A DNA stretch of 62,617 nucleotides, the filler included, from Asterionella formosa (lineage: Eukaryota): the NCBI GenBank assembly GCA_002256025.1. It is 6 parts of 6 records of this genome, joined end to end, with 100 filler letters (N's around TTAATTAATTAA, not from the genome) between each part and the next. Parts side by side here need not be neighbours in the genome. Positions count along the whole stretch, not along the records: positions 1 to 10,368 come from NKIB01009569.1; 5 more parts are not named here. The stretch is one strand, 5' to 3'. The position numbers and the translations under genes were made by a program. Below, in pieces: positions 1,286 to 54,399 of the stretch (the first letter of the stretch is position 1; the number at the start of each line of letters is the position of its first letter). The notes under the pieces were generated by a model. The model searched no databases. It saw nothing but the letters and a program-made list of their open reading frames with translations, and was not told where the DNA came from.

Positions 1286-1452
1286 GTATAATGAAAATGT
1301 ACATTCTGCTATCATTTTCTGTACCAACCAGGGTACTGCTACCAGAAAATAGATAATACAAATGTGTATATTATTGCTGATCTATTAATGAGTTGTTATG
1401 CAGTGTCACCAATGGCAGAGTCAGAAAGCTGAGAACTATAGCTGACCATCAA

Positions 1453-3181
1453 GCTGAAGGCAATACATGCCCAAGGTGGTCTCATACCTGCTACTCCCTC
1501 TGTCTAGTAACTGTTGCATTGATAATTCAAATTTATCCGGGGCCATTTTGACTCCTACGATTTTCTCCGGCTCAATTGCCCTATTGTGCGGCTTGCTCTA
1601 AGCTACAGAATAATAAATATATTATATACAGAAAGATTAAAATTGGCAACTACTTAAAAAAAAAGTTTTTCGGATTTTTCGACTTCCACTGTTGCTTATC
1701 TCGAGCAAAATGCAGAAGCATGAGGACCCATTTTTCTTCGAACAATCTATTCTCAACATATGTACAAAGTACAATATAACAGTAGAACAATGGCAACTTG
1801 CGTTCAATTATGGAATGTGCAACCCCAAAAGTGGTGATGATAGGAAGTAAGAAAGCACCAGCATGCTTGTTTTGAGGATTGTAACCGTTAAACATCTGGT
1901 GGCATGGTCCATGTAGGTGCAACAACCGTAGAAAGTATACCGAACAACAATTATTCTATTCATGTCATAATTATGATAGTGGCTTGTTGTATTTGGTTTC
2001 CCGCAAATATTTGACTGGCCGGCCGATGTGAAACAGCAGTTGGCAATATGTACATGCATGCAATGAATATGCGTATCTTAAATTGATTTCGATCAATTTA
2101 TTTAGATGCTAATAATTTAATTACAGAAACTGAGTATATGTTCTTGTCTATGTAACTCATAAAAACGCATTTTTTCGAGTAAGCCGACCCTCACGTAGAA
2201 ATTTGGTATGTTGGCCACATAATCCTTCATATGCGAACAGTTAAGACACTGGTGGTGCCAGCGAATCGATGCAACTGTTACTAGACAGAGGGAGTAGTAT
2301 ACATGTTTTCAAGGCAGGGTGGCATGAGTAGGTTGACCATACAAGTGGCACCCCTGGCACTGTGAGAAGGTCACCCTACAAGTGCCATCCCAGCCAAGTA
2401 CACATGTGTACAAGAAGGAATGAAGCCACTGAGCAGGGTATTGTCGAGGATATTAAAAAACTAGCTATTGTCACACTATTCCAATCTTCATATCGAAATT
2501 TGCAATGGGTCCAATATTACCCATCATTAAATAAAATTGTTGCATATTTCTTATGTTCCCATTTTGGCATTACAATTTGTGCCAACTGCCCCTTGGTTTT
2601 CCAGCCCTGGGATTGCCGAGATTGGCAAAGGGTCTACTTAAGGAAACCATTTTTTACACTCAACAGATTTCAATAATTTAAACATAGAATTCACCTCATT
2701 TTTGTTCGTCGCCTGAAAAAAGGACAATTGCAATTCACCTTTCACCATGCAGATCATCGTCCATCATGCCCAGTCTGATGCGAAAATAGTTCATTGATGA
2801 AACCAGCAGCGATACATTGTCGAATGGATGCAGTTGGTTGTTGGCTTGCTTGTCTTCTTGTGTGATTCAAGTAGTCACATTGTCCATATTTCATTGGACA
2901 AACGATGATATCGGTGCATATCTGATGTTGGTGGCAAGTTTTTGCTCCGGTCATGCATGTGATGATACTTGATGGATATTCTGCTCATCTAGCCTAGATA
3001 TGTACGCAGCAATTAAAACAACCATGTACGGATTAAGCTAAACTTTAATGCCTACTTTGAACACTTTATAATATTCATGCTGCAGACTTGGTATTACCTT
3101 TACAAGACCAGAATGTTAAATTATATTGTTCACATCTTCATTGATTTTGCATACCATATACCCGATTTTTTCCGCCAAATG
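1453..3181 (-). repeat. Repeat family A, copy A1 (inverted; right half plus hairpin end), interrupted by a MITE
   Basis: 1453-1493 plus 2297-3181 is the reverse complement of ~6600-7627 and of the 3' part of the 52.3-54.07 kb copy, e.g. GGTCTACTTAAGGAAACCATT vs AATGGTTTCCTTAAGTAGACC. Confidence 0.85.
1494..2294. mobile_element. Stowaway-like (Tc1/mariner-derived) MITE, 801 bp, TA target-site duplication
   Basis: ~30-bp TIRs CTCCCTCTGTCTAGTAACTGTTGCATTGAT / ATCGATGCAACTGTTACTAGACAGAGGGAG with 2 mismatches, and TA on both sides (1492-93, 2295-96). The empty site is visible in paralogous copies of repeat A. No transposase ORF. Confidence 0.9.
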
Positions 3182-3425
3182 TTTGTTCAAACAGTACAAT
3201 CAGTATCCCCAATGGGCGTTCTATGACATTCAATTAGACGGATTTCTATATTGAAAGTAATCCTAATCCTGCTGACTACGAATATCACTTCTTGTAGCTA
3301 ATGTAGTAAATCACAATAAAGTTACTACTTCTTATTATAGCTTAATTGTAGGAGGAATCATGCTACTAATTGTGAATTGTATGTGCTTCTACAATGGACT
3401 TATTTTTATCTTAATTGTAGGAGTG

Positions 3426-4500
3426 ATTCCCGCTCCATCTATTGTCTTGCCATTTTGGTACTTTTAAGTAATTTTTAGGCTCTAAGTATTTTCTTAAGTA
3501 GTTTTTATTTAGGGGCAATATGGGGCACATCAAATTTTTCGGCATCAAAATTGCCGATTTCAGCATGAAAGCCAGAATAATGGTAATGTATATAAAAATA
3601 GTAAAACAAGCATCAAACACACTGAGAATGATTGTAACACGCAATATCAATGAAAATCGAACATGATGTTTGGAGAAACCAAAGAATTACATGCAATGTA
3701 ATAAGTAGGGTCAAATGAGAAATAGAAAATATTGTTTTGGGTTAGAAATACAGTAAAAATTGGAGTGTCAGTGGAGAAATATCTATGCATTGTAGCACTT
3801 ACACAGGCAACATTGACTTTCCATTACGCCATCGAAGAACGAAATGAAACAGATAAGACGAAAAACTCAAGCCTATTGAAATCGTGATATAGCATAGATG
3901 ATATGGTTGCTGCAACCATGAACATCGCTGTAGTAGCCTGATCCAAGTTGCTTGCAGCCCTCCCGCCCACAGTTGTTCTGCCCATCAAATAGCAGCCTGA
4001 TCATTTCATTCCAATCCTTTCTGACTGATCGTGATTGCCAGGAAGCTCCAGCACTATCGACTCCCTCTAGCTGAATATTTTAATGTATCTTGTGATACGA
4101 ACTTGTAGTAGAAATGTAGCAACGCGCATCAGTACAAAAAAGTATTGCTTAGCAGCAATATTGACATTGTGGTCAATGACAACACAAATCAACAGATATG
4201 ATCAACAACAATACATCTTCAAAGAGTAGTCATCGATAAATACATTGTTTCTTGTGTAGATACTAGATACAATCGAAACAACGACAGTGCGGAACGACAA
4301 ACAACGGTAGAAGCAATCAAAATGGACCATGGAAGCAACTAAATCAGAAATTCAACACATTCATTGTTTCACTGTTGTACTCACCGATCCACTCTAACTA
4401 GGATAACAAACAGCAGACGATGTTATCAAAAGAAGGTCGAAAGATCCCGGTTGCAAACCCAAATTGAGCAATGGCAGGCAGGATAGAGTGAGAAGGATAA
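3426..4500 (+). repeat. Repeat family A, copy A2 (left half, diverged)
   Basis: Colinear similarity to 5526-6590 and 52301-53285, e.g. TAATTTTTAGGCTCTAAGTA, CACAGGCAACATTGACTTTCCAT and CTCTAGCTGAATAT. Confidence 0.85.
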
Positions 4501-5079
4501 TTGTGAGGTAGTCAGATCAACAGTCGTAGTGCTAACGTTGCTCGTATATATCACTCGATCGCTCCAGCAGTCCAGCGGATGCGCTGGGTTTTTTTGGGGC
4601 GATCTGCACATACAATTCGAATAAAAGCGGCGCGTTTGTGCGTGGGAATCTTGTGCTTATGAATGAAACAAGAGCAGCAATTGGTACCAGTGGGCATGGT
4701 AGAATTGGGGCCCAATCCCTGAAATAAATAGCCAATCTCTAAACCATTGGCAGTGGCACAAAGGGGAGCGGTGCTAAAAGTCAATCAGTCCTTATAGCCG
4801 CAATTTTACCATTGTTGGGTGGAGGACCAATGGTGCTGGTAGCTGATAGCTGATAGCTAGAGAAAGATTTTCAAGAAGGGGAGGGGTAGGTGTAACACTG
4901 TGGGGAATTTCATGGCATTGGCGGCTCATTGGACCAGTTTTATTAAGGGTGAATTGATTGCCCCCAAAATTTGAAAATTTGTTTGAATACACCAGCTGGT
5001 TGGACGTTCTTGAGTCAGCATGATACTCAGATTCCTTTTGATAAGGGGTTAGGGACTTGATTTCAGATTGACTTGATGA

Positions 5080-5330
5080 GGTCAGCTTTGGGATCAATCC
5101 AATTGGCTGCCATGCATTTACCTTATTTCTTACATTGGTAGTAAATATACCACATGACATTTGAACAGGCTCCATTGTGTACTTGTTCTTTTTTCGACCA
5201 TATGTGTCTTATCAATAAAGAACATGAGTGGAACAAAGAAGTCATTGAGCTGGGTACATAAGTATCCATGTGCATCAATCCACCAGCAGCCAGTCAAAAA
5301 TTCGGATCTCACACTGGTTGGTTGTGACAA
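5080..5330 (-). pseudogene. Plavaka-like transposase fragment (frameshifted)
   Basis: Two adjacent frames read EFLTGCWW...FFVPLMFFIDKTH and EPVQMSCGIFTTNVRNKVNAWQPIGLIP. This resembles the Plavaka pattern TGxWW..VPhhhxxDKTH..PVxhxxG..R..AWxxhGxhP (from memory, not searched). Confidence 0.6.
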
Positions 5331-5525
5331 TTTACATGGCTTGGAGAAATCAAGAGATTCTTAACCTGAGCCAAGAAATTACAACATATGACATCAATCA
5401 ATGTTCCATCATGCCATGCTGCTTATTTCACCTGGGGAATGGAGTCATTCATTTCAAATCACACTTTTTGCTAAGTATAATAGCAAGCATAATAAAACCT
5501 ACTTTGTTCAACTAGAGACCAGAAA

Positions 5526-7627
5526 GCAATTCCCACTCCAGCTATCGTCTTGCCATTCGAGTACTTCTAAGTAATTTTTAGGCTCTAAGTAATTTCTAAA
5601 GTAATTCTTATTTAAGGGCAATATGGGGCACATCGAATTTTTCGGCAATAAAATTGCCGATTTTAGCATGACAACCAGAATAACGGTAATATGCATAGAG
5701 ATGGTACAACAAGCGTAAAACACATCAGAATGATTGTAACATGCAACATCAATGAAAATTGAACATGATGTTTGGAGCAACCAAAGTATGAAATGCGATG
5801 TTATAAGTAGCATCAAACGAGAAATAGAAAAAAATGTTGGGCTAGAAATGAAATAAAAAATAAGAATTCCAATGGAGACGTATGCATTGTGAATCATTGT
5901 AGTACTTACACAGGCAACATTGACTTTCCATCACCATACAATCGAAGACCGAAAGAAGAAGAAAAAAGCTCAACCCAATGTAGACCTGTATCGTTATTTA
6001 GCGTCAATGGTCCGGTTGCTGCAACCATGCGCATCGCTGTAGTAGCCTGACACCAGTAGCAGTATTTCCGCCACAGTCATTCCTCTCCGCCCACCAAACA
6101 GGAAACCCTGATCATTCCATTCTGAGCAAGCATGATCGCCATGCTGCTCCAGCACTATTGACTCTCTCTAGCTGAATATATGAAGCTTCTGATACGAACC
6201 TGCAGTAGAAATGTAGCAAAGCGCGTTAGTACAAGAAAAGCATTCCTTGGCGGCAATATTGACATCACTGTCAATGACTATACAAATCAACAACGGCACA
6301 ATACCACATCTTCAATGAGTAGTCATTGATAAATGCATTGGTTCTTATGTAGATATATACAATCGAAACAAAACAACAGTGCGTAACGACAAACAACGAT
6401 GGAAGCGATCAAAACAAACCACGGAAGCAATCAAATCGGAATAAATACGATCTACAATCCACATTCAGTGTTTCACTGTTGTACTTACCGATCTGCTTCA
6501 ACTAGCATAACAAGCAGCAGACAATGGGATCAAAGAAAGACGAACGTTACCTATTGCAAGCCCGAGTAGAGCAAAGGCAGGCAAGATAGAGTGCGAACTA
6601 TATTTGTGAGGACGAAATCGGGCATACGGTACGTAAAATCAATGAATATGTGAACAATATAATTCAACATTTCAGGTCTCGTAAAAATAATACCGAGTCT
6701 ACAGAGATAAAATAATTTCGTGTTCAAAGTAAGCGTTAAAGCATAGCTTAAACCATGGATGGTTGTTTTTAGTACCACGTACGTATGTAGACTAGATGAC
6801 TGCCGGGAACCGGTAGAATATCCGTTAAGTATCATTACATACATGACCGGAGCTAAAACTTGCCAACAACATCAGATGTATCGATATATCATCGTTCGTC
6901 CAACGAAAAATGGATGATGCAACTACATGAATGCCTCGAGAAGACAAGCAATCCAACAATCAATCACATCCGTTAGGCAAAGAATCGCTATTGGCGTCAT
7001 CGCGGAACTGATTTCGCTTCAAGCCGGTCATGATGGACGACGATTGGCATGGTGAAAGGTGAAATTGCCGGAGTCCATTTTTCAGGAGACGAACAAAAAC
7101 GAGGTGAATTCTAGATATAAATGATTAAAAACTGTATAGTATATAAAATGGTTTCCTTAAGTAGACCACTTGCCGATTTCGGCGATCCCAGGGCTGGAAA
7201 ACCGAGGGGCAATTGGTGTCTGTTGTCTTGCCAAAATGCGAACATATAAAATATTCAAAATGTATTTTAATGATGGGCAATGTCGGACCTTTGGCAATTT
7301 TCGAAGTGAATATAGGAAATACACAAAATATATATTTAATATGATGGGCAATAGTAGGGTAAAATTGACATTTATGCTAAATTGGTGGGCAGTAGGTAAG
7401 CGAATGACGCGACAATAGCTAGAGCGGGAATTGCCTTAACGATACCCTTCTCGGCGGGTACTTGCCTTCTCGTATACATGTGTACTCGACTTGGATGGCA
7501 CTCGTAGGGTGACCTTCTCGCAGCGCCGGGGGCGCCACTCGTACTGTCAACCTACTCGCGCCACCCAGCCTCGAACACATGTATACTCGCAGGCAAGAGA
7601 CCACCTCGGGCGTGGATTGCCTTCGGG
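5526..7627 (+). mobile_element. Repeat family A, copy A3 (most complete): non-autonomous element with imperfect inverted repeats and a long hairpin beyond the right one
   Basis: Left GCAATTCCCACTCCAGCTATCGTC (5526) matches the reverse complement of right GACAATAGCTAGAGCGGGAATTGC (7411-7434). GGCAA motifs recur near both ends, there is no long ORF, and similarity between copies continues through the hairpin to ~7627. Confidence 0.75.
7450..7608 (-). other. Long imperfect hairpin with five periodic CGAG/CGAG (tandem G.A) internal motifs
   Basis: Ten CTCG at 7450, 7469, 7485, 7501, 7517, 7538, 7555, 7570, 7586 and 7605 are symmetric about 7529. The intervening segments are reverse-complementary (TATACATGTGT/ACACATGTATA; CTTGCCT/AGGCAAG; GCGCC-GGG-GGCGC apex). 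Confidence 0.85.
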
Positions 7628-8008
7628 AATCCCTGATAGCGAAGCTACGAAGGTTTCCGGGAATCTGCAACACCCAAAATCAACATGGCGAAAGCTCAGT
7701 CAAACGCCGGAGCCTGCGACGCTTCTGCCAAAACGCAAGCCACAGCGTAGACACAAACAAGCGCTTCCAATGAAGTGAAAGGAAGCGATTCAATAACAGC
7801 TAAATTGCGTAAAGTAGCCTATATTAATGCATCTGACTACGATCGTGATGAAGTCAACCTCACAATGGCGTCACAACAAGAAGCTTCTGATGATAAATTG
7901 GCACGGGCGAAAGAATACTCTTTGAAGAAGCAGCGCAACATCATCTTGGCAGAGTAACAACAAGATCCAGAGTTCATTTCGATTCTAAAGGAGGATAATA
8001 GAGCAAAA

Positions 8009-8360
8009 AATTCACTATTCCAAGCGCCAACATGGAATTCAACAGACCTACTGTACCAGACCCAACGGAAACTCTAGCAGAGCGCACAATTGCAGGCAAG
8101 TATTCTTCTCAGAAGCAACAGCGAAAAACAACGACAGAAGCACAATCACCAGCATTCGATTCCACTCTCAAGGCGACAACCGGGCAAAACAATTCATTAT
8201 TCCAAGAGTCCCCAATGACTTTGAGGAATCCAATATTCCGGAGCCACATGAACGTCAATCAGAGTGCACAACTGGTAGCAAGTATGTTTCTCAGGACAAA
8301 CAGTGCACAATAAAATCGTCACAAGCACAAGTAACAGCATTCGATACCAATCTAAAAGAT
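8009..8360 (+). repeat. Diverged ~182-bp tandem duplication inside a decayed coding-like region
   Basis: AATTCA(C/T)TATTCCAAG at 8009 and 8191; CAGAG(C/T)GCACAA...CAGCATTCGAT at ~8078 and ~8260. Confidence 0.6.
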
Positions 8361-10130: not shown

Positions 10131-10246
10131 CACGTGTCTAGTACAGAGCAAGGTAGCAGACGAGGAGGCCCATCTGCGCCAGGTTTCTTTTCATGAAAAA
10201 CAGCTGCTGGCTGGAACGCAGTAAAGGACCAAATATCACATTTGGT

Positions 10247-10250
<4 letters not shown>
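10131..10250 (-). repeat. Repeat family B fragment (inverted relative to ~11965-12120)
   Basis: GCGCCAGGTTTCTTTT...AAAACAGCTGCTGGCTGGAACG is the reverse complement of CGTTCTAGCCAGTAGCTGTTTT...AAAAGAAACCTGGCGC near 12030-12075. Confidence 0.75.
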
Positions 10251-10368
<118 letters not shown>

Positions 10369-10468
10369 NNNNNNNNNNNNNNNNNNNNNNNNNNNNNNNN
10401 NNNNNNNNNNNNTTAATTAATTAANNNNNNNNNNNNNNNNNNNNNNNNNNNNNNNNNNNNNNNNNNNN
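10369..10468. other. Artificial contig linker N44-TTAATTAATTAA-N44
   Basis: Identical 100-nt spacer present five times; the 12-mer gives stop codons in all six frames. Confidence 0.97.
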
Positions 10469-10711
10469 CATTAATACCTCAAGGTTAAACAAATATATAT
10501 GCTAGTCAAACAAATAATTATGTGTAACCAATTCGCTTTTTCAATTTCATTCTACAATCGCAAAATCAATCAAATTAATCGCTTCGCTATATAGTAGTTT
10601 ATATTGATACTTTCTATAGAACGTGATTCTCAAACCAATACGACAAGCAATGGATGTTCATTCTTGCAGCTGGATGCTGTAACTTAACGCAAGATTGCTT
10701 GGCTACTCATA
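10469..10711 (+). repeat. ~240-bp direct repeat at the start of contig 2 (partner 20584-20825)
   Basis: CATTAA(T/C)ACCTCAAGGTTAAA...GGCTACTCATA is present at both contig ends with several substitutions and indels. Confidence 0.9.
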
Positions 10712-10789
10712 GTACTTGCAGGAATCCATGTTTACTACCGGTAGATCAATTCATAGCAAATGAGCCGGCTGCTCATTCTCATTGCTCGG

Positions 10790-16067: not shown

Positions 16068-16355
16068 TTTTCAACGCACTATGCATATTACCGAACGAAT
16101 TAATATTCGTCGGATCAAACCTTTTCATAGGTAAAAGGTTTTCCCTCAAGTGTGGGAGAGTGAGCAATCCTGCACATCGATACAGATATATATAGAGTTG
16201 GGGTTATGTCAAATATATCGGAATTCAATAATGAGAGAACTCGACTAACACCCATCCTATACTTTGATGTCAGTTCAGGAAATGAGTTATACATAAGGAT
16301 TAATTAATAAGCTCATATATTCAACAAATACTACTACTTCTAGTTAGATACTTCA
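16068..16355 (+). mobile_element. Gypsy remnant: 3' internal end, polypurine tract and LTR (LTR 16161-16355, TG...CA)
   Basis: Reverse complement of 31865-32132. GGGAGAG PPT lies immediately before TGAGCAATCC, and the LTR ends TAGTTAGATACTTCA. Confidence 0.85.
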
Positions 16356-16987
16356 CCAGGTACCGGAATTCCCCGGTCAGCCAACCCAGCAGCAGCAGAC
16401 AATGATGTACTCGGAGTAAAGTTGTTGGTCGTCAAGGGACGAATTCCCCTGAATTCGTTCTTACGCACCTCTTTTTTGCACAACATTCGCACTTGAAATT
16501 GCGCATAAAATCCACAGGGCGCTTTTCATGGCGGCGGGGTTTGACAAATTGAATCAGCAAAAGATGCTCGATGCACGATGCTCGATACAAGGACCAAGTC
16601 TGAATTTCTCGTTTGAATCCTTCCATGAATTCAAATTCTTCCATTCACTCAAATTGCTGCGCTAACTCCTCCTCCTCCTCCGCCTCCTCCGCCTCCTCCT
16701 CCTCCTTGTCCTGTCGCCTTGACAGAGGCTGCTCTAATGCTACCGGTATTATAGTCGAATACGCGAGCGTGCGGTCACATCAGCTCTTCAGCTTCCATGG
16801 GAAATCTCGATATTATGTGTCCATCTCTATCCATTGTATGTATCAAAATGGTTCCATTATATTACCATCGCCGGGTAGCGAAGTGTCCAAGGCCTCCTAT
16901 CAACAACTGTTCAACAAATATGTAATTCAAGTTGGAACATGGGAACACAAGAAGAGCAGGATGTGGTACGAGATGATTATTTCGTGA

Positions 16988-20583: not shown

Positions 20584-20825
20584 CATTAACACCTCAAGGT
20601 TAAATAAATATATATGCTAGTCAAACAAATAATTAGTGTAACCAATCAACGTTTAAATTAAATTCTAGCTACAATCGCAAAATCAATCAAATTAATCGCT
20701 TCGCTATAAAGTTTATATTGATACTTTCTATAGAACGTGATTCTCTAACCAATACGACAAGCAATGGATGTTCATTCTTGGAGCTGGATGCTGTAACGAT
20801 TTGCAAGATTGCCTGGCTACTCATA
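20584..20825 (+). repeat. ~240-bp direct repeat at the end of contig 2 (partner 10469-10711)
   Basis: See the partner copy. Confidence 0.9.
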
Positions 20826-20836
20826 CTAAAACTTTC

Positions 20837-20936
20837 NNNNNNNNNNNNNNNNNNNNNNNNNNNNNNNNNNNNNNNNNNNNTTAATTAATTAANNNNNNNN
20901 NNNNNNNNNNNNNNNNNNNNNNNNNNNNNNNNNNNN
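20837..20936. other. Artificial contig linker
   Basis: N44-TTAATTAATTAA-N44. Confidence 0.97.
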
Positions 20937-30024: not shown

Positions 30025-30230
30025 TGAGCTATCTCGCTCAACTATAGACACACCTATAAGGTTAGGTTTGCATGAGACTACTGGTACATCAGATCTCTAT
30101 CAGGAGAGAACTTGACGAACACCTATTTGAATACCTTAGTGTCAACCTCGGAGATCGAGCTGCACACAAGGATTAACAATAAGAAGCTCATGTATTCAAC
30201 AAATACTATTACTTCTAGTTAGACACTTCA
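30025..30230 (+). mobile_element. Solo LTR, diverged relative of the Gypsy LTR
   Basis: TGAGC...TATTCAACAAATACTATTACTTCTAGTTAGACACTTCA. The flanks CCTGA/CCTGG may be a 5-bp TSD with one mismatch. Confidence 0.75.
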
Positions 30231-30737
30231 CCTGGTACCTGGTACTCCCTCCAGGCACAAAATAATGCATGAATTCTTAAAATTTCTCCAGGGCCATTTT
30301 GACTCTGACAATTTTCTCCAGCTCAATTGCAGGTTGTGGCCCCATCTTATCCCTAGTTTGGAGAACAAATCGCTAAGGTTGTTAAATTGACATGGAACAG
30401 GGAATTTGTTTCTGTGCATTCCTGTCTGAATATTTAAACTAAGTAGAAAACAGCGCCACATTGATAGATATTCTCGGACTTTATAACATTAAAAAGCATC
30501 AATGAATGTATTCAAACCTTTCAATCGTAGGCATTAAACAATTAATAAAAATAAATTTCTAAAGTATGAAAGGTCCAGGTACCCATCTCCATTCCTAGAT
30601 TGTGGCATGGGATGATACACCCTTCTGACTCTTCAAAAGTATTTTCTTCTTTAAATCTATGTAGTGCTGAAACATGCACACCAATACTTCCTTATTATGT
30701 ATGGACTAGTATAATTTGAATTGTAACTTTAGCATAC

Positions 30738-31296: not shown

Positions 31297-31396
31297 NNNN
31301 NNNNNNNNNNNNNNNNNNNNNNNNNNNNNNNNNNNNNNNNTTAATTAATTAANNNNNNNNNNNNNNNNNNNNNNNNNNNNNNNNNNNNNNNNNNNN
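31297..31396. other. Artificial contig linker
   Basis: N44-TTAATTAATTAA-N44. Confidence 0.97.
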
Positions 31397-32059: not shown

Positions 32060-34932
32060 ACCTTTTACCTATGAAAAGGTTTGATACGACGAATATTAAT
32101 TCGTTTTGTAATATGCATAGTGCTTTGAAAAGTAACTGTACCATTGGCATGTACTTCAATAATAGTATAAGGACCTTGTCCACAATCATCCAAAGTAGTA
32201 GGATTATCCAATAGTATTAAAATCTCGTCACCCACTTTGTAATCATAAGATCAACGACGGAAATTAACACGACGTAAACGTTGGTCAATTATCACTTGTC
32301 GACGTTGATATATAAATTGTAAATCTGTAATCAAAGAAATATTTAATATCATATCACGTTGAAAAACCCATGCTCCTGGTGAAATACGTAATATACTATG
32401 AATGGTAGCTCGAGCTGCATATGCCGCCGCTGCAAAACATGTATCCACAATATTTTGGGCTTGAAATTCATTGATTGGAGGATGAGCCTTGAACATCATA
32501 ACTCGTAGACTATTACTGATAGATTGATGTAAACGTTCACAGATAGCATTTGCTTGTGGATTCTTGACTGTAGTATTCACATCTTTAATTCCATTCAATA
32601 CTAACATGTGTAAGAAAGGAACACTAGTAAATTCACCTCCATTGTCATGTATACAATGTTCTGGACGGGGATATCTGGGCAACCAATCATTTTCAAATTT
32701 CATCGCAATGTATTCTGATGTTTTATTGTTGATACGTGAAATTTCTGCTAAATTGGTGACTGTGTCAATACAAGTTAGAGCACGAAACTCAATTGCTTGA
32801 GCAGCCACTGTTATCTTCCATGGACCAATTAGATCTACTGCGACTTCTGACCATGGTAATAACAATGCATTCCTGGGTGGAAGTTCACCAAAACCAGTAC
32901 CAGATAATTTTGTACGTTGACATGCTTCACATATGCTTACAATATGTTCCACTTTTTCTTTTAATGTAGGGTGATAAAAATGTGTAGCAATTGAGCATTT
33001 AATCTTGTCATACCCACATGAGCTAACATCTGATGATACCAATTAATAATAGGATCCAATCGTAGAACATGTTGGGTATGTAAAGTATTATAAATAAGAT
33101 TTCGATGATCAGTGTGAACATGGAGAACTGCACCCAATAACATAGAGCGAAATTCTTTGAAAGTTTCTACCACAGAAAGTATTTAGTATAATTCTTTGCG
33201 CAGCAGATAATTTGCGAGAATAATAAGCAACTGGGAGATCATTTTGCATAATGACCGACCCTAATTGATAGTCAGAGGCATCAGTAAAGATATGAAAAGG
33301 AAGATTATGATCAGGATAACGCATGAGTGTATCTGCAACTAACAATGCTTTCATTTCTTCAAAAGCTTGTTGATGGATAGGTAACCAGACAAATGGACTA
33401 GTTCCAATTAAATCCGTAAGTGGTCCAAGAACATGAGATCATCTAGGAAACATGTCTCGATAGTAAGTAACAGCACCAAGAAATGATCGAACTTGTTTAA
33501 GATTGGTAGGGGAAGACATATTAATCAATGCTCGGACTTTTTTAGACCAAGGTTTCAGTCCATTAGGAGTTGACCAATATCCTAACCAATCTGTCTCTTG
33601 GATGGCCCATTCACACTTAGATGGATTAATTGTAAAACCCTTTGCCTGTAAACGAGGTAAAATAGGGTCCAATAAATGAAAGTGATCCGAAAAATTCATT
33701 GAAAAACAACCCACATCATCAATATAAATTTCCACATCATCTAAATCACTAAGAGTCTGTTCCACATTTTCTTGTGCAATATCAGATGATTGTTTCACCC
33801 CCATAAGGAGATGTAAATATTTATATAAACCAAATGGAGTTAAAATAACGCACAAGTTTTGACTCTCCACATCCAATGCGAAAGTATAATATTGCATGGA
33901 AACATCCAATTTGGTGAAAAATACATATCCAGCACGTTTAGTGAGAATAGTTTGTATTCGAGGTAAAGGGTATTTATTGCGATTGATGACTTTATTGAGT
34001 TCACGAAAATCTGATACTGATCGGACACGTCCATCCTTTTTTGGAATAATAAAAGTGGGAGATGCCCATTTAGAAGCACCACATTTTTGTAGAACTCCTA
34101 TATCACATAATCGTTGTAATTCTGTTTTGAAAACTTCTAAATGAATATTAGCGATAGGATATGCTCGTTCATGACGAGGGACAGCATTTGATAATAATTC
34201 CAAATGTACCTGTTTATGAGGATAGACTTTTAATTTGCCATCAAATAATGTTTGATATTTAACCAATAAAGTTCGCAAACATGATCGTTGTAGTGTTGTC
34301 AAATGTATCTGTTTATCCACCACTGTATCAATATTTATGTAATTATATTCAGCAGCTTTAATTTCCAGCGCATATGAAGATTCCACAATCATAGGTGCAT
34401 CAAAATAAAATAATACATCACGTAAACGTTCTCCATCATCAAAGAATGTGAGAGGATGCATAGGAACAATCATATCCATACAGGACATGGTGTCATTTAC
34501 GAAATCAATGGTTAAACCAACTTGACAGAGGAAATCACGTCCTAAAATAACATCAAATGTGCATAGACCATTAAAAACTTGACACTTTTGTTGTAAAATA
34601 TGAGCGGATCGATTAAATGCTGGTAGAATCAGGTCATACAGCATAACACTGGCATGAGATGAATAAGTACGAGCTATGGTATGTATTAATTGGGAAGTCT
34701 CATTAGATAAAGAAATACCTTGAGGCATAACCCGTTCATGTATTAAGGATAAGGATCCTCCACTATCGAATAATAATTGTAGTATTTTATGCATAGGTAT
34801 ATCATCCACCAATTGTCGCGCTAAAAGGGACATCGGAATCAAATCAATTGATGTTAATATATCCTTAAGTAGGAAACCGGAATTGGGCAGTGACAGACCG
34901 GCCGGAAATATTCGTCTTGTGTGATGAGCCAT
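32060..34932 (-). pseudogene. Ty3/Gypsy pol (protease-RT-RNase H-integrase), disrupted by stops and frameshifts; no gag or 5' LTR seen
   Basis: LFDSGGS protease; VSDFRELNK..YPLPRI and [24 protein letters not shown] RNase H; H..H..CEAC, VDLIGPW, HDNGGEF and NPQANAICER integrase. The domain order is Gypsy-type. Confidence 0.95.
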
Positions 34933-35657
34933 TTCGTTTTCATTGGATTTCTTTTCAAGCTCTTAACGGATTGCATTCTACAAACATATTGTGCACTGTA
35001 GATGATGATTCATCAAAGCCATATGATGACTTGAATGGCAAATGAAGATTTTATCACAAAATCTCGTTCCTCTCGACATGGCTGCTTTGTCGTTGTTGCA
35101 AGAGTCAGAGTGAGGACTGGCAAGGATGATGAGCCAAACCACATTACTCTAACTGGTACATTATCCTACCAAGAATTTTAAATGAAGGAATCTAAAAGAA
35201 ACAATACATATAGCTAATAATTAAATTTCCATAGTCAAAGGGTTATTATTTAAATTACGAGGGCATTTATCAAATTTGTTAGATGATATAACAAAACATT
35301 ATGATCAGATGATCATAATCCTATGATGCATCATAGGAATATGATGGTTTTTATTTGCAGATGTAGAGGGGGCAGAGAGAAGGATGGCCGCAGTGTCGTT
35401 GTAGGAATAGGAGGGAGCCTGAGGGGCTGGAGCTTAGGCAAGGAGACAGTCAGAAGTATTGTCGATGGCAAGGTGAAACGACGGGAAGGTGAGGAAGCAA
35501 CTGCTCAGTTTAGCAAGGAAGGTGCAGCCAGGTCCCTGACAGCGATGGACCCGGTTGAATAATAGTGGGATGTCCAAGCCAGGTACAGGGAGACAGTTGG
35601 TCAGGCGGACGAAATGAGTGGCCCCTAACTAGATGGAGACGGTGCCACAACTATGTG

Positions 35658-41555: not shown

Positions 41556-41743
41556 TGAGCGATCTTGCGCATCAATACAGATGTATATAGGGTTAGTGTT
41601 ATATCATGTATGTATAAGAACTCAATAATGAGAGAACTCGACTAACCCTCATTGTATACTTTGGTGTCGACTTGGAGAACGAGTTACACACAAGGATTAA
41701 CAAATAAGCTCATATATTCAACAAATACTACTACTTCTAGTTA
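41556..41743 (+). mobile_element. LTR of the same Gypsy family, truncated by the contig end
   Basis: TGAGCGATCTTGCGCATC...AATAAGCTCATATATTCAACAAATACTACTACTTCTAGTTA. Confidence 0.85.
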
Positions 41744-41843
41744 NNNNNNNNNNNNNNNNNNNNNNNNNNNNNNNNNNNNNNNNNNNNTTAATTAATTAAN
41801 NNNNNNNNNNNNNNNNNNNNNNNNNNNNNNNNNNNNNNNNNNN
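41744..41843. other. Artificial contig linker
   Basis: N44-TTAATTAATTAA-N44. Confidence 0.97.
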
Positions 41844-42787: not shown

Positions 42788-43250
42788 TATGCTTTCTATT
42801 CTCGTTTTTGCGATTTGAACTCCGCTATTTATTTCGCTGAATCGTTCTATGAATGAAAGATGTTCTTTATTTAGTACTACATATGATAGAATATGTCGCT
42901 GTCCGGTAACACGTTGTCCGTTCCGGGAAAATGACCGCAATTTACAGGTACAACAACCAGATGCGGTCATTTCGCTTCAATAAACAATTTAATATCGGAT
43001 AAAGACATTTAGATCCTCAGATCAGCAAAATTACCGCAACTTGCTGGTTGGTACCTGGTACCTGTTGCTAAAAAGTTGCACACTTAGTGGTATACTTTAA
43101 TATATATGCACGTATTACAAAGAAATGAATGCCGGCAAAGATAGTAAAAGACAAGGGCAAGGGAGAGTAACAGTCTGCAGATTCGAAGTCCGGCAAGGCG
43201 TTTCATCGCACCTGCCATAAAACAGCCGAATAAACGAGAACGAATCAAAC

Positions 43251-45242
43251 ATGTCCATCGCACCTTCTCTTTCAGTAGCCACAAGCCACGATAAAAATGT
43301 AGTTACGAATCAGTATGATGTACAAGTTGAGCTCATTAAGAAGGGATTATGTCCTCGTCATCCAGGCATTATCATTCGCGGTGGCGACTGCCGTGCATGT
43401 GAAGCGACTAGAAATAATCCTATTGATGCAATTCTTGAAAAGATGCAGATGCAAGATGCAGATACTGACCCAAGCAGTCAAGTGGTGACATGGCTCATCG
43501 AGCTCAAGAAATTGGCTGATTTTAACAACCAGGATGAGATTTTTCGTAAAGGAGGTATCAATAAGATTCTGTCTGCGATGAAAACTTTTTCAAAAAGTGC
43601 TATTGTGCAACAACATGGTATTGGAGCACTTGGGAGTTTGGCTAGGAATAATGACGAAAACAAGGAAGAGTTTGCTGGAAAAGGAGGTATCATTGCGATT
43701 GTGTCTGCTATGAAGAGTCATTTAGGCAATGTAGATGTGCAAAAGGAAGGTTGTAAAGAACTTGGGAACTTGGCTATGAATGACAACAACAAGGAGAAGA
43801 TTGCTGAAAAAGGTGGTATAAAAATGATTATGTCTGCGATGAAGAAACATGATCGGAATGTTCATGTGCAGCGCCATGGTTGTGCAGCACTTCATAAATT
43901 GGCTGTGAATGACCAGAACAAGTCGACAATTGCTAAAGAAGGAGGCATCCTAAGTATTCTGAACGCGATGGAGATATTTTTACTTGAAGATGTTGATGTG
44001 CAACACTATGGTTGTGCAGCACTTAATAACTTGGCTGTGAATGACGAAAACAAGGAGAAGATTGGTAAAGAAGGAGGTATCAAAATGATTTTGGCTGCGA
44101 TGGAGAATTATTTATCGAATTCTGATGTGCAACACTATGGTTGTGCAGCACTTAATAACTTGGCTGTGAATGATAACAATAATGAAAAGATTGCTACAGA
44201 AGGAGGTATCAATATGATTGTGTCTGCGATGAAAAAACATTCCTCCAATCTTGACGTGCAACTATCTGGTTGTGCAGCATTTAATAACTTGGCAGTGAAT
44301 GATAACAACAAGGATAAGATTGTTGACGCAAATGGTATCATGAGGATTGTTTCTGCTATGGATGAACATTCATTGAATGCTTATGTACAACACTTTGGTT
44401 GTAGAGAACTTTTGAACTTGGCCTACAATGATATCAACAAGGAGAGGATTGCTGGAGGGGATGGTATCGGTATCATTGTGTCTGCGATGAAGAATCATTT
44501 TTTTAATGCTAATGTGCAACACTATGGTTGTGCGGCACTTAATAAGTTGGCTGTGAATGATAATACCACGGAGAAGATTATTGACGCAGATGGCATCAAT
44601 ATGATTGTGTCTGCGATGGAGAGACATTTATCGAATGCTAATGTGCAACACTATGGTTGTGCATCACTAAATAACTTGGCTGTGAATGATAACAACAAGG
44701 AGAAGATCGCTACAGACGGAGGTATCATGAGGATTGTGTCTGCAATGGAGAAACATTTATCGAATGCTAATGTGCAACACCATGGTTATGCAGCACTTAA
44801 TAACTTGGCTGTGAATGATAACAATAATGAGAAGATTGCTACAGAAGGAGGTATCAATATGATTGTGTCTGCGATGGAGAAACATTTATCGAATGCTAAT
44901 GTGCAACACTATGGTTGTGCAGCACTAAATAACTTGGCTGTGAATGATAACAACAAAGAAAAGATTGCTACAGAAGGAGGGATAACTGTGATTATATCTG
45001 CAATGAAAAATCAACCATCAAATGAAAATGTGCAACAATATGGTTGTAGAGCACTTAATAACTTGGCTAAGAATAACAACAACAAGGTGGCGATTGGAAA
45101 TGCTGATGGAAAAGGCGCAATTGTGTCTGCTTTGGTAAATTATGCGTCAAATGCGGATGTGCAAACGAATGGTAAAGAAGCACTTTCAAACTTTGACCCC
45201 TTGGGATATTTTATTTTGGGTATCTTCAGGAGGATTACATAG
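43251..45242 (+). CDS. Armadillo-repeat protein (~13 x 42-aa units) with an N-terminal C-x2-H...C-x2-C putative Zn motif
   Basis: 663-aa ORF with unit NKEKIAxEGGIxMIVSAMExHLSNANVQHYGCAALNNLAVNDN and near-identical 126-bp DNA units; N-terminal CPRHP...CRAC. Confidence 0.92.
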   Translation: MSIAPSLSVATSHDKNVVTNQYDVQVELIKKGLCPRHPGIIIRGGDCRACEATRNNPIDAILEKMQMQDADTDPSSQVVTWLIELKKLADFNNQDEIFRKGGINKILSAMKTFSKSAIVQQHGIGALGSLARNNDENKEEFAGKGGIIAIVSAMKSHLGNVDVQKEGCKELGNLAMNDNNKEKIAEKGGIKMIMSAMKKHDRNVHVQRHGCAALHKLAVNDQNKSTIAKEGGILSILNAMEIFLLEDVDVQHYGCAALNNLAVNDENKEKIGKEGGIKMILAAMENYLSNSDVQHYGCAALNNLAVNDNNNEKIATEGGINMIVSAMKKHSSNLDVQLSGCAAFNNLAVNDNNKDKIVDANGIMRIVSAMDEHSLNAYVQHFGCRELLNLAYNDINKERIAGGDGIGIIVSAMKNHFFNANVQHYGCAALNKLAVNDNTTEKIIDADGINMIVSAMERHLSNANVQHYGCASLNNLAVNDNNKEKIATDGGIMRIVSAMEKHLSNANVQHHGYAALNNLAVNDNNNEKIATEGGINMIVSAMEKHLSNANVQHYGCAALNNLAVNDNNKEKIATEGGITVIISAMKNQPSNENVQQYGCRALNNLAKNNNNKVAIGNADGKGAIVSALVNYASNADVQTNGKEALSNFDPLGYFILGIFRRIT

Positions 45243-45273
45243 GGTAAGGGTCAAGGGATGGCCAGGGTTAGGA

Positions 45274-45780
45274 TTATGGTTGTGCAGCACTTAATAACTT
45301 GGCATTGAATGATAATACCACGGAGAAGATTTTTGACGCACATGGTATCAATATGATTGTGTCTGCAATTGAGAAACATTTATCGAATGCTAATGTGCAA
45401 CACTACGGTTGTTCAGCACTTAATAACAACTTGGCTGTGAATGATAACAACAAAGAAAAGATTGCTACAGAAGGAGGGATCACTGTGCCTATATCTGCAA
45501 TGAAAAATCAACCATCAAATGAAAATGTGCAACGATACGGTTGTAGAGCACTTAATAACTTGGCTAAGAATAACAATAGCAAGGTGGCGATTGGAAATGC
45601 TGATGGAAAAGGCACAATTGTGTTTGCTTTGGTAAATTATGCATCAAATGCGGATGTGCAAACAAATGGTAAAGAAGCACTTTCAAACTTTGACCCCTTG
45701 GGATATTTTATTTTGGGTATCTTCAGGAGTATTACATAGAGTAAGGGTAAAGGGATGGCCAGAGTTAGGGTTAGGGTTTA
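45274..45780 (+). pseudogene. Partial tandem duplicate of the 3' end of the ARM gene
   Basis: Starts mid-repeat without an ATG and repeats the C-terminus, the stop codon and the downstream AGGG-rich tract. Confidence 0.85.
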
Positions 45781-51899: not shown

Positions 51900-52188
51900 T
51901 GTTATATCTACAGCCTATTTGGTCCCTGACGTGTCCTTACAGGATACAAGAAAGCATAGAGTGCTTCGGGACGCAATTTCAACAGTTTTAATAGAATTAG
52001 CCGGCCAGGAAGAGCCGTGATATCACAATCAACAACAGGTTGGACCGTTGAGAGTCCGGAAACAAGATCTGAGGGTACCAGACCATCCAGAGTCTGAAGA
52101 AGTCGCACAAGGCGCAACATGAGTGGCAAAGGGAAGTTTACCAAGAAGGCTCAAGCCAAGGGCAAGTTTCAAGCCAAGGGAGGGAGCA
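51900..52188 (+). mobile_element. Possible 5' end of a Copia-type retrotransposon (short LTR TGTT...CAACA, leader, start of a basic gag-like ORF at 52119)
   Basis: TGTT at 51900 and CAACA at ~52030-52037 followed by GGTT. ORF MSGKGKFTKKAQAKGKFQAKGGS is open to the contig end. There is no second LTR to confirm it. Confidence 0.3.
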
Positions 52189-52288
52189 NNNNNNNNNNNN
52201 NNNNNNNNNNNNNNNNNNNNNNNNNNNNNNNNTTAATTAATTAANNNNNNNNNNNNNNNNNNNNNNNNNNNNNNNNNNNNNNNNNNNN
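52189..52288. other. Artificial contig linker
   Basis: N44-TTAATTAATTAA-N44. Confidence 0.97.
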
Positions 52289-52300
52289 TATATAGGGTTA

Positions 52301-54069
52301 GCCGATTTTAGCATGACAACCAGAATAAGGGTAATATGCATAGAGATGGTACAACAAGAGTAAAACACACAAGAATGATTGTAACATGCAACATCAATGA
52401 AAATTGAACATGATGTTTGGAGCAACCAAAGTATGAAATGCGATGTAACAAGTAGCGTTAAATGAGAAATAGAAAAAATTGTTTTGGGTTAGAAATGAAG
52501 TCAAAAATAGGAGTTTCAATGGAAACGTAGCATGCATTGTGACATTGTAGTACTTACACAGGCAACATTGACTTTCCATCACCACACAATCGAAGACCGA
52601 AATAAGAAGAAAAAAACCTGAACCCAATTTAGACCTGCATCGTTATGTACTAGCATAGATGATCTGGTTGCTGCAACCATGCATCGCTGTAGTAGCCAGA
52701 CCCAAGTTGCTTGCAGTCCTTCCACCACCCACAGTCATTCCTCCCACCAAACAACCCTGACCATCATTCCATTCCAATCCATTCTAATTGATTATGATCG
52801 CTAGGCTGCTCCAGCACTATCGACTCCCTCTAGCTGAATATACGTAGCTTGTGATACGAACTCATAGTAGAAATGTAGCAAAACGCGTTAGTTCAAGAAA
52901 AGCATTGCTTGGCGGCAATTTTAACATCATTGTCAACGACTGTACAAATCAACAAATACGATTAAGAACGGCACAATACCAAATCTTCAAAAGAGTAGCC
53001 ATTGATAAATACATTGGTTCTTATGTAGATAGATACAATTGAATCAAACGACAGTGTGGAACGACAAACAACGACGGAATTGATCAAAACAGACCATGGA
53101 AGCAATCAAATCGGAAAGTCGATAAATAGGATCTACAATCCACATTCAGTGTTTTACTGTTTTACTCACCGATCCGCTTCAACCAGCATAACAAGCAGCA
53201 GACGATGGGATCAAAGAAAGAAGAACGTTGCCTATTGCAAGCCCGAATACAGCAACGACAGGAAGGATAGAGTGAGAAGGATAGTAATTGTGAGCACGAA
53301 ATCAGGCATACGTTCATAAAATCAATAAATATGTCAACGATATAATTTAACATTCTGATCTCGTAAAAATAATACCAAGTCTACAGTATTGATATCATCA
53401 TTCGTCCGACGAAAATATGGGCGATTCAACAATATGAATCCCTCGAGAAGACGACAAGCAATCCATCAACCAACCGCATCCGTTAGACAACGAATCACTA
53501 CTGTCGTCATCACTGAACTAATTTCGCTTCAAACCGGTCATGATGGACGACGATCGGCAGGGTGAAAGGTGAATTGCCGGAGTCCACTTTTCAGGAGACA
53601 AGCAAACAAAAACGAGGTGAATTCTAGATATAAATTATGAAAATCTTTAGAGTATATAGAATGGTTTCCTTAAGTAGACCCCATGCCGATTTCGGCAATC
53701 CCAGGGCTGAAAAACCGAGGGGCAATTGGCGTCTGTTGTCTTGCCAATATGCTATCATATGAAATATACAAAATATTTTTTAATTATGGGCAATATCGGA
53801 CCTTTGGCAATTTTCGAGGTGAAGATAGGAAATATACTTTATTTGATGGGCAATAGTGGGCTAAAACTGAAATTTATGCTTTTTTTTTGGGCAGTAGGTA
53901 AGCGAATGACGCGACAATAGCTAGAGCGGGAATTGCCTCAATAATAACCTTCTCAGCGGCCGGCTACTTGGAGCGCCACTCGTATGGTCAACTACTCGCG
54001 CCACCCCCTGCCTCAAACGCATGTATACTCGCAGGCAAGAGACCACCTCGGGCGTGTATTGCCTTCAGC
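52301..54069 (+). repeat. Repeat family A, copy A4 (left end cut by the contig edge; internal deletion near 53385; most of the left hairpin arm deleted)
   Basis: Colinear with 5657-7627, including GGGCAGTAGGTAAGCGAATGACGCGACAATAGCTAGAGCGGGAATTGCC. Confidence 0.9.
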
Positions 54070-54399
54070 ATCCACTGCTGCAAGGGGAGATAAAAATGCT
54101 GGCATGATTGATGATACTATATTCTGATTGTGTGACTGAACTTCTTGGTTCTAGGCAGCTACTCTCGAATAGTCTCTCTTAGCCAGCACTGTCCGGCCCT
54201 CATTACTGTCGTCACTGGTAACTACTAGCTTGTTGCTCCTTGCTTCGTCTTTGCAGTCTCACCATCCTCAGTTCAAGCTTAGGAAAATGAATTATGCTTT
54301 GATGATTTCTCAGAGCTCATTTTACAACTTTCTTAACTAAAAGCAGACAGCGCATATATATATATTTGGAGTAATCATGACATTGAGAAATGGTGCAGC

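Follow-up and report, generated by a model that had tools for sequence, protein, structure and literature searches.

The stretch analyzed here, called the window throughout, comprises 62,617 nucleotides (nt) of the Asterionella formosa genome (GenBank assembly GCA_002256025.1). It consists of six separate pieces of ~10.3-10.4 kb, joined by runs of N around the linker TTAATTAATTAA. Since the pieces are separate contigs, adjacency across the joints is not real, and this includes the arrangement of copies A and C relative to copy B described below. The window is eukaryotic in character, with long open reading frames (ORFs) carrying ankyrin, cyclin, armadillo, GH30 and long terminal repeat (LTR) retrotransposon pol domains, and its G+C content ranges from 35 to 49%. 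The feature under study is an imperfect palindrome of ~173 nt, hereafter the hairpin, studded with ten CTCG tetramers. Comparison of the window with itself by BLAST showed that the hairpin closes a ~2.1-kb repeat, and the data presented below identify this repeat as a mobile element of a freshwater eukaryote, non-coding and very abundant. The copies found in the window, and the parts of them that concern the hairpin, are as follows.

5525-7624, plus strand: copy A, a ~2.1-kb non-coding mobile element, from self-BLAST.
52301-54066, plus strand: copy B, 84-90% identical to copy A, from self-BLAST.
3426-4508, plus strand: copy C2, an old fragment, 77-80% identical, from self-BLAST.
3180-2296, minus strand: copy C1, an old inverted fragment, 77-80% identical, from self-BLAST.
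7443-7615: hairpin of copy A, imperfect palindrome of ~173 nt with its core at 7450-7608; the minus strand is the better-folding one.
2296-2472, minus strand: hairpin of copy C1, with both arms present and a 12-nt deletion.
53913-54070, plus strand: 3' part of copy B, made of the right inverted repeat, the hairpin and a tail ending in CTTC plus AGCA.
10367-10470, 20837-20936, 31297-31396, 41744-41843 and 52188-52289: N-run joints, the points at which the window is concatenated.

The 5' part of copy B is missing, being interrupted by the scaffold linker at 52188-52289. The repeat has no coding capacity. None of the four ORFs of at least 100 amino acids lying wholly or partly within 5500-7775 matched a Pfam family at E ≤ 0.001, and among the 23 ORFs of at least 45 amino acids in the element four gave matches at E ≤ 1, all of them sub-threshold and at chance level.

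The internal landmarks of the hairpin are the following.

7450, 7469, 7485, 7501, 7517 and, across the centre, 7538, 7555, 7570, 7586, 7605, plus strand: the ten CTCG tetramers.
7523-7535: hairpin apex, a 5-bp G+C stem (7523-7527 with 7531-7535) and a 3-nt loop (7528-7530), present in the folds of both strands.

An earlier description of this DNA made from the sequence alone (the original prediction) had placed ten plus-strand CTCG tetramers at mirror positions around 7529, and their positions, spacing and sums were reproduced exactly. Successive motifs are separated by 19-16-16-16, then by 21 nt across the centre and by 17-15-16-19 thereafter, while the sums of left start and right end for the facing pairs are 15058, 15058, 15058, 15059 and 15058. 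Within the 159-nt core, the plus strand contains ten CTCG and no CGAG, against 0.32 per strand expected from their density in the window (Poisson P ~2e-12). A periodic pattern of three CTCG motifs was matched four times in the window, always inside the hairpin, with 0.00 matches expected from 100 shuffles. The departures from 16-nt spacing are themselves mirrored, with 19 nt on each outer side and 16/16 facing 17/15 at a 1-nt bulge, indicating that what is preserved is the facing of the motifs across the dyad and not a simple period.

This geometry bears on one explanation in which folding would play no part. The ten tetramers, all in one orientation and at ~16-bp intervals, could be binding sites in duplex DNA (iterons) for a transposase or a host protein; the array would then polarize the palindrome and the hairpin would be incidental. 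An array of ten direct copies without a single inverted one has the expected appearance, more direct subterminal repeats (GGGCAAT, see below) lie just upstream, and the Rep proteins of some replicons, pMV158 for example, bind direct repeats beside the nick hairpin (PMC10288648; here and below, published features are taken from the available portions of the papers cited). The motifs nonetheless face each other to within 1 nt even where the spacing leaves 16 (19...19; 16/16 versus 17/15), and their conservation is confined to the 4-nt core, the base before CTCG being A, T or C and the base after it any of the four. We therefore regard a duplex iteron array as very unlikely.

Tandem 5'-pyrimidine-GA-purine-3' steps form stable sheared pairs in DNA. 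Such steps arise on the minus strand of the hairpin, where each facing CTCG pair reads CGAG opposite CGAG. When folded as RNA, the minus strand of copy A reached -98.0 kcal/mol (z -8.0) and the plus strand -75.6 kcal/mol (z -3.9), with none of 200 shuffles as good in either case. The minimum free energy structure of the minus strand has 62 pairs, including seven G-U, and five symmetric CGAG/CGAG 2x2 loops separated by helices of roughly 12-15 bp. For the near-consensus contig L001 folded as DNA, the values were -47.4 (z -7.3) for the minus strand and -41.4 (z -5.5) for the plus strand. The family consensus gave -107.1 and -82.9, respectively, as RNA, and -48.5 and -42.5 as DNA. The fold is thus strand-asymmetric, as originally proposed, with the minus strand superior under both sets of parameters. 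Turner parameters assign -0.7 kcal/mol to the CGAG/CGAG loop and +1.4 kcal/mol to CUCG/CUCG, so that the five G·A sites account for ~10 of the 24 kcal/mol that separate the strands as RNA, wobble pairs making up the remainder. The generic DNA parameters score the same loops at +1.3 and the pyrimidine counterpart at +1.7. As they contain no special term for tandem G·A, the difference between the DNA strands is probably underestimated.

Wobble pairs in the consensus number seven on the minus strand and two on the plus strand, both of the latter outside the core; core oppositions include six G·T on the minus strand versus one on the plus strand (roughly P 0.1). An A/G polymorphism at 7489, affecting ~50% of the depth, leaves the minus strand paired, with G·U in place of G-C, whereas on the plus strand G-C gives way to A·C. 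Besides this position (~half of the depth), the family consensus differs from copy A at 7437, 7441, 7458, 7492 and 7545 (nearly all of the depth), and several of these differences improve the pairing of the hairpin.

Two other accounts of the structure were rejected. A chance palindrome, or a perfect one in decay, would require ten coordinated transversions at phased sites. Kink-turn or box C/D motifs place their tandem G·A beside a 3-nt asymmetric bulge, whereas each of the five sites here is a symmetric 2x2 loop with C-G and G-C as closing pairs. Searches against Rfam returned no match at gathering thresholds in the whole window and none at E ≤ 10 on either strand of 7350-7700, and a tRNA scan of the window found none.

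To assess the distribution of the element, contigs from DNA runs X2 and X5 and from RNA-library runs X14 and X16 were aligned to positions 7000-8200 at a likeness of at least 85%. The segment 7300-7760 was found at least partly in 20 public runs of 15 studies, and at least half of its words in three runs. X2 yielded 1851 aligned contigs and X5 yielded 741. Summed contig depth, which is not equivalent to copy number, ranged in X2 from 7e4 to 5.5e5 over 7000-7614 versus ~160-900 (one bin at 1474) over 7656-8200; in X5 it was ~1300-8000 over 7000-7614 versus ~9-38 over the unique flank. The many distinct variant contigs in X2 and X5 point to a large dispersed family. Since the unique flank is present in both runs without any difference, X2 and X5 contain the same organism. 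That the hairpin stands at the end of a mobile repeat, a further claim of the original prediction, is borne out by contigs whose homology ends at 7624 and which continue into unlike flanks: among the matches listed, there were 40 such contigs in X2, 18 in X5, one in X14 and three in X16. Consensus sequences of the loose ends behind 7624 each start with AGCA and then disagree. Three metagenome contigs (L001-L003) also carry the hairpin and are 89-93% identical to copy A.

The RNA-library runs are relevant to the idea that the hairpin works as RNA, a minus-strand transcript forming a G·A-studded rod that would serve as a small-RNA precursor or bind protein. The difference between strands is indeed largest with RNA parameters (-107.1 versus -82.9; loops of -0.7 versus +1.4 kcal/mol), contigs of X14 cover the hairpin at depths of 3-16, and X16 has an abundant contig (1232 nt, depth 1644) with a CpG-decayed copy at one end. 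Strand information is, however, lacking for contigs of such libraries, which may also contain DNA, and some bins of the aligned stretch, 7246-7327 among them, have no RNA contig over them. In X14 the hairpin is covered about as deeply as the single-copy flank (4.6-4.8), although the copy number of the family is high; the copy in X16 is decayed, with 22 differences, those listed including CpG-type changes at eight of the ten motifs; and Rfam gave no match. Moreover, a fixed place 9-13 nt from a transposon terminus is better explained at the DNA level. Thus, of the minus-strand function originally envisaged as either single-stranded DNA or RNA, the fold asymmetry holds, while the RNA option, left with weak and strandless contig evidence, seems to us very unlikely. 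As an observation in its own right, positions 10-196 of the X16 contig match window positions 7415-7601; an abundant transcript from some related organism or locus seems to carry a decayed copy of the hairpin at an end.

Conservation of the CTCG motifs was then compared among copies. All ten are retained in copy A and in L001, nine of ten in L003, seven of the eight covered in L002, and four of the six present in copy B. In X2, CpG-transition variants make up 0-18% of the depth at nine of the ten motifs, among the variants listed. Copy C1, ~78% identical to copy A, retains none of the ten: its motifs now read CTTG, CTCA or CTCT, and one position was lost to the 12-nt deletion. All CpGs of its hairpin have turned into TpG or CpA, other positions being much better preserved. 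By its appearance, this pattern is the ordinary decay of a dead copy, and the uniform fate of the CpGs suggests decay driven by CpG methylation in the host. The presence of a hairpin at the same place in so old a copy indicates that the structure is long-standing in the family. The original prediction had named loss of the G·A positions in other copies among its grounds for refutation; the intact copies retain these positions, the decayed C1 does not. With CTCG opposite CTCG in each of the five facing pairs, and with the motifs surviving in intact copies, the proposal that the mismatches are built in, as opposed to resulting from decay, is supported by these comparisons.

Some copies have undergone rearrangements within the palindrome. 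Deletions that remove the apex were found in single contigs (7479>7580, 7485>7584, 7495>7546 and 7524>7565), and the hairpin of copy B has lost nearly its whole left arm. In L002, which is in reverse orientation and aligned here to 7464-7475, the second motif of the left arm reads CGAG and the adjoining single mismatch is corrected as well. The altered patch, of at least 6 nt and seen in this one contig, is the exact complement of the right arm and looks like a templated correction within the folded hairpin. Taken together, apex deletions, loss of the copy B arm and the converted patch suggest structural activity of the palindrome at the DNA level.

Outside the hairpin, the element shows the following landmarks.

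5525-5549, plus strand: 5' terminus, AGCA overlapping the left 24-nt inverted repeat (5526-5549).
7207, 7275 and 7346 (span 7207-7352), plus strand: three direct subterminal GGGCAAT repeats, ~70 nt apart.
7411-7434, minus strand: right 24-nt inverted repeat, subterminal, ~190 nt inside the 3' terminus.
7430-7436, plus strand: ATTGCCT, left copy of a 7-nt direct repeat, 5' of the hairpin; conserved in L001, L003 and copy B.
7616-7624, plus strand: 3' tail, made of the right ATTGCCT copy (7616-7622) and TC.
53913-53936, minus strand: right 24-nt inverted repeat of copy B.

A search with the 24-nt repeat pattern gave three matches in the window, with 0.00 expected by chance, and the right repeat is also found in L001 and L002. 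The left repeat is preceded by a single A, which gives the AGCA start; on the other side, 8 nt separate the right repeat from the hairpin. Where copies A and C2 and the junction in L001 can be compared, homology begins at AGCA/AGTG and the sequences upstream are unlike. The foot of the hairpin lies 9 nt from the 3' end in copy A and 13 nt from it in the form of the family that ends with AGCA. This AGCA occupies the equivalents of positions 7625-7628 in copy B, L001 and L003, after which the flanks diverge; copy A reads GGGA there. Hence, AGCA is found at both termini of the element. The three GGGCAAT repeats recur in copy B (53720, 53788 and 53848). As the count of this heptamer in the window is weakly above chance (14 versus 7.5 expected), the case for it comes from clustering; the repeats are possible protein-binding sites.

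In L001, the element's 3' end is joined precisely to its 5' start, with one shared AGCA at the joint. The letters in common (AGCAATT at most) are too few for a k-mer chimera, which argues that the junction, whether from a head-to-tail arrangement or from a circle, is real. No target-site duplication is visible around copy A, the sole copy with both flanks. Copies truncated on the 5' side with an intact 3' end are represented by C1 and by contigs whose matches start at 7501 or 7564.

A different kind of junction occurs in one X2 contig of single-copy depth (133.8). It contains the right repeat, one ATTGCCT, two letters and then sequence like the 5' start, thus representing a head-to-tail junction devoid of the hairpin. 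Together with the identical ATTGCCT at 7430-7436 and 7616-7622, it raises the question of whether the hairpin is a separate foldback palindrome, akin to a miniature inverted-repeat transposable element (MITE), that inserted once, with a 7-bp duplication of ATTGCCT, into the tip of a cut-and-paste transposon with terminal inverted repeats (TIRs) and was passively amplified from then on with no role in the movement of its carrier. Removing the hairpin and one ATTGCCT leaves the 24-nt repeats nearly terminal, and this is exactly the form that the X2 contig shows beside a 5' end. The same form would nevertheless result from deletion of the palindrome by slippage between short direct repeats. Among the boundaries listed, there is no family-wide one at the hairpin's own ends, the dominant boundary being 7624, and copy C1, old as it is, already has the hairpin. 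A nested insertion also leaves the five identical, phased CTCG/CTCG oppositions unexplained. Cut-and-paste movement does not fit the precise head-to-tail junction, and a TIR or MITE identity does not agree with a right repeat ~190 nt inside the end or with the lack of a duplication at copy A. On balance, we find a nested insertion rather unlikely.

The arrangement of the ends was compared with that of known elements. In Helitron2/Helentron elements (HLE2), the right inverted repeat is followed by a stem-loop and by the terminus, with the repeat lying 20-60 bp inside the end (PMC4067079, PMC5148889), a distance given as 20-40 bp for the 3' repeat in PMC5148889; the inverted repeats measure 12-16 nt (PMC11417382) and the palindromes have stems of 5-20 bp (PMC4067079, PMC5148889, PMC11417382). 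Tandem copies and joined ends have been reported for Helitron-type elements (PMC5148889). The present element resembles this group, including its HINE/DINE-1 derivatives, in having an asymmetric inverted repeat, with the left copy at or near the 5' tip and the right one inside the 3' end, and a stem-loop (here 7443-7615) that follows the right repeat and precedes the 3' terminus. Both also have numerous derivatives without coding capacity and occur as head-to-tail copies, as far as the available portions of these papers describe them, and no target-site duplication is visible around copy A, the one copy flanked on both sides. The dimensions, on the other hand, differ: the repeat is 24 nt long and lies, in its right copy, ~190 nt from the end, and the hairpin of ~173 nt exceeds the published ones about tenfold. 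HLE2 elements do not feature direct terminal AGCA repeats, the plus strand shows no evident T-T insertion site, the element has no known RepHel partner, and the available portions of the HLE2 papers make no mention of periodic tandem G·A.

Helraiser, a member of the HLE1 group, has a 19-bp palindrome 11 nt from its 3' end that acts as transposition terminator, and it forms circular intermediates (PMC4778049). The distance is close to the 9-13 nt observed here. Unlike HLE1 elements, the repeat lacks 5'-TC and 3'-CTRR, its termini being AGCA... and ...CTTC(AGCA), and it possesses an inverted repeat, absent from HLE1; the Helraiser hairpin, at 19 bp, is also far smaller. The hallmark of Replitrons, which are Y1 Rep transposons found in algae, plants and protists, are short direct terminal repeats, stated to be 'not observed in other HUH transposons', and hairpins or palindromes at one or both ends are general among Rep transposons (PMC10288648). 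A possible hairpin near the right end, high-copy non-autonomous forms, algal hosts and perhaps the short direct terminal repeats are shared traits. Replitron direct repeats are, however, 6-12 bp long, against 4-5 nt here, the described hairpin is an 11-bp palindrome, inverted repeats do not figure in the available description, and the survey reported there found no Replitron in diatoms or oomycetes (PMC10288648). The AGCA(A) of the present element, found at both ends and as a single copy at the head-to-tail junction, is at 4-5 nt indistinguishable from a target preference as long as empty sites are lacking.

The subterminal imperfect palindromes of bacterial IS200/IS605 elements are recognized as hairpins on one strand, and their irregularities let the HUH transposase tell the top from the bottom strand. 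Strand discrimination through hairpin irregularities is the same logic as that proposed below; IS200/IS605 hairpins are short and have no periodic G·A sites.

Searches for comparable structures elsewhere covered prokaryotic and viral collections and the literature. A pattern of six periodic CTCG motifs found no analogous hairpin among the matches listed (80 of at least 116 loci in prokaryotic genome contigs, and 24 viral loci). In these collections, which do not include eukaryotes, arm complementarity reached 9/12 at best and the top 15 matches were all tandem repeats of 8 or 16 nt. The exact 26-nt apex pattern had no match in viral contigs. In the open-access and bioRxiv literature, supplements aside, we found no described transposon end whose long hairpin has tandem-G·A sites at periodic intervals. 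Matching four short stretches as strings against the literature returned a single hit, a chance primer match in a paper on pineapple. Altogether, the original statement that the structure resembles no described transposon end or RNA family stands for RNA, with no match in Rfam, and goes too far for transposons, where the layout is already published for Helitron2/Helentron. What is unusual here is the size of the hairpin and its periodic G·A sites.

Judged by its sequence organization, the element is laid out like an HUH or rolling-circle transposon, without any claim to membership of a given family. Pointing this way are the asymmetry of the inverted repeats, the position of the hairpin beyond the right one, the shortness of the tail and the head-to-tail junction, and of the rolling-circle origin or terminator first guessed at, it is the terminator that fits this anatomy. 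We tentatively favor the view that the hairpin is a single-strand DNA signal for end recognition or termination in a non-autonomous transposon of this type, a reading to which we give slightly less than even confidence. Movement of the element would then most likely depend on an HUH endonuclease, in the manner of Helitron2/Helentron elements and perhaps of Replitrons. When the end is unwound to single strands, the palindrome would snap into a rod marking the element end for the transposase, as a pause, termination or end-recognition signal that would set the nick within the tail. Being 2-nt mismatches in phase, the five sites may keep the 160-bp repeat from being a deletion-prone perfect palindrome. 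They would also make the strands unequal, with tandem G·A and G·T pairs holding the CGAG/CGAG strand in a stable rod and the complement of that strand burdened with destabilizing pyrimidine loops and A·C oppositions. Such inequality would disfavor cruciform extrusion from the duplex, and an enzyme or host factor could thereby distinguish the strands. With ~16 bp between G·A sites, neighbors would point to opposite sides of the helix and alternate sites to the same side, a disposition that would suit binding by a multi-subunit protein.

Several observations weigh against this view. No Rep, helicase or other transposase was found in Pfam scans that covered 54 of the 72 window ORFs of at least 100 amino acids and that also took in two further ORFs as well as the shorter ORFs (at least 45 amino acids) within the element; since no transposase was found, the link to HUH elements is drawn from layout. 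Both the 24-nt inverted repeat and the stem-loop of ~80 bp per arm exceed the published dimensions (12-16 nt and 5-20 bp, respectively). On the plus strand, the last base of the 5' flanks is A or G, and the first base after AGCA is A, A, C, A, A and T in the 3' flanks, so that a T-T site is not apparent. Viewed on the minus strand, T is both the first and the last base of the element, and four of six upstream flanks are T, both flanks being available in copy A only. A strand conflict exists too: by the HLE2 convention the plus strand is the written (top) strand, yet the strand with the G·A sites is the minus. The element may be of a 'reverse' kind, or the folded strand may be the one left behind, or it may be the weak hairpin with pyrimidine loops that is read. 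The copies show no compensatory changes, A, L001, L002 and L003 being near-identical in the stems and the stem changes of C1 uncompensated; the asymmetry in wobble pairs is weak by itself (6 to 1 in the core, roughly P 0.1). Finally, the head-to-tail junction was seen in one contig, and the 7-nt ATTGCCT on either side of the hairpin, along with the one hairpin-less junction in X2, fits a nested insertion with target-site duplication as well.

A bolder version of the termination-signal reading can be formulated. The rod could be a new kind of end signal, namely a strand-specific fold of single-stranded DNA in which five sheared G·A sites, ~1.5 turns apart, would give a multimeric HUH transposase or some host factor an array to dock on or a ruler, and the element could belong to an undescribed lineage that combines the asymmetric inverted repeats of Helitron2 with the direct terminal repeats of Replitrons. 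As a whole we consider this version quite unlikely.

To our knowledge, the terminal hairpins of eukaryotic rolling-circle transposons are short, poorly conserved and experimentally dissected only for Helraiser; they are the least understood part of this mode of transposition. The family described here offers a natural, exaggerated terminal hairpin, present at very high copy number, ten times the published length and with strands made unequal by a repeated, chemically defined motif. It would give a handle on three questions: which strand is read, whether structure or sequence is sensed, and how a genome tolerates a near-palindrome of 160 bp. The hairpin is best seen as a striking and experimentally tractable version of a known type of signal, an assignment made from layout. 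Elements of this kind would probably escape programs that look for Helitrons by repeats of 11-18 nt and short stem-loops, as described in the available portion of PMC11417382. Being so abundant, the element is also a marker repeat for its freshwater host.

Other features of the window are unrelated to the hairpin or lie outside the element. In the unique flank downstream of copy A, aligned contigs skip 71 nt at 7834-7906 and 74 nt at 8050-8125. The 71-nt skip occurs in DNA runs X2 and X5 and in RNA run X16, the 74-nt skip in X16, and a near-identical replaced form of the latter (8051-8125) in X2; these look like indel or replacement variants between strains, not introns. A long (GCT/GTT)n microsatellite at 10221-10373 extends into the scaffold linker. 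On the minus strand of 32254-34962, three adjacent ORFs form the pol region (reverse transcriptase, RNase H and integrase zinc-binding domain) of an LTR retrotransposon that has no relation to the hairpin element. Positions 43221-45739 hold a long ORF composed of ~14 tandem armadillo-type repeats of 129 nt (43 amino acids). Dispersed repeats, 84-92% identical, connect different pieces of the window (16213-16364, 30180-30239 and 41610-41761; also 10596-10714 and 20710-20828), and some of them lie near the ends of the pieces.

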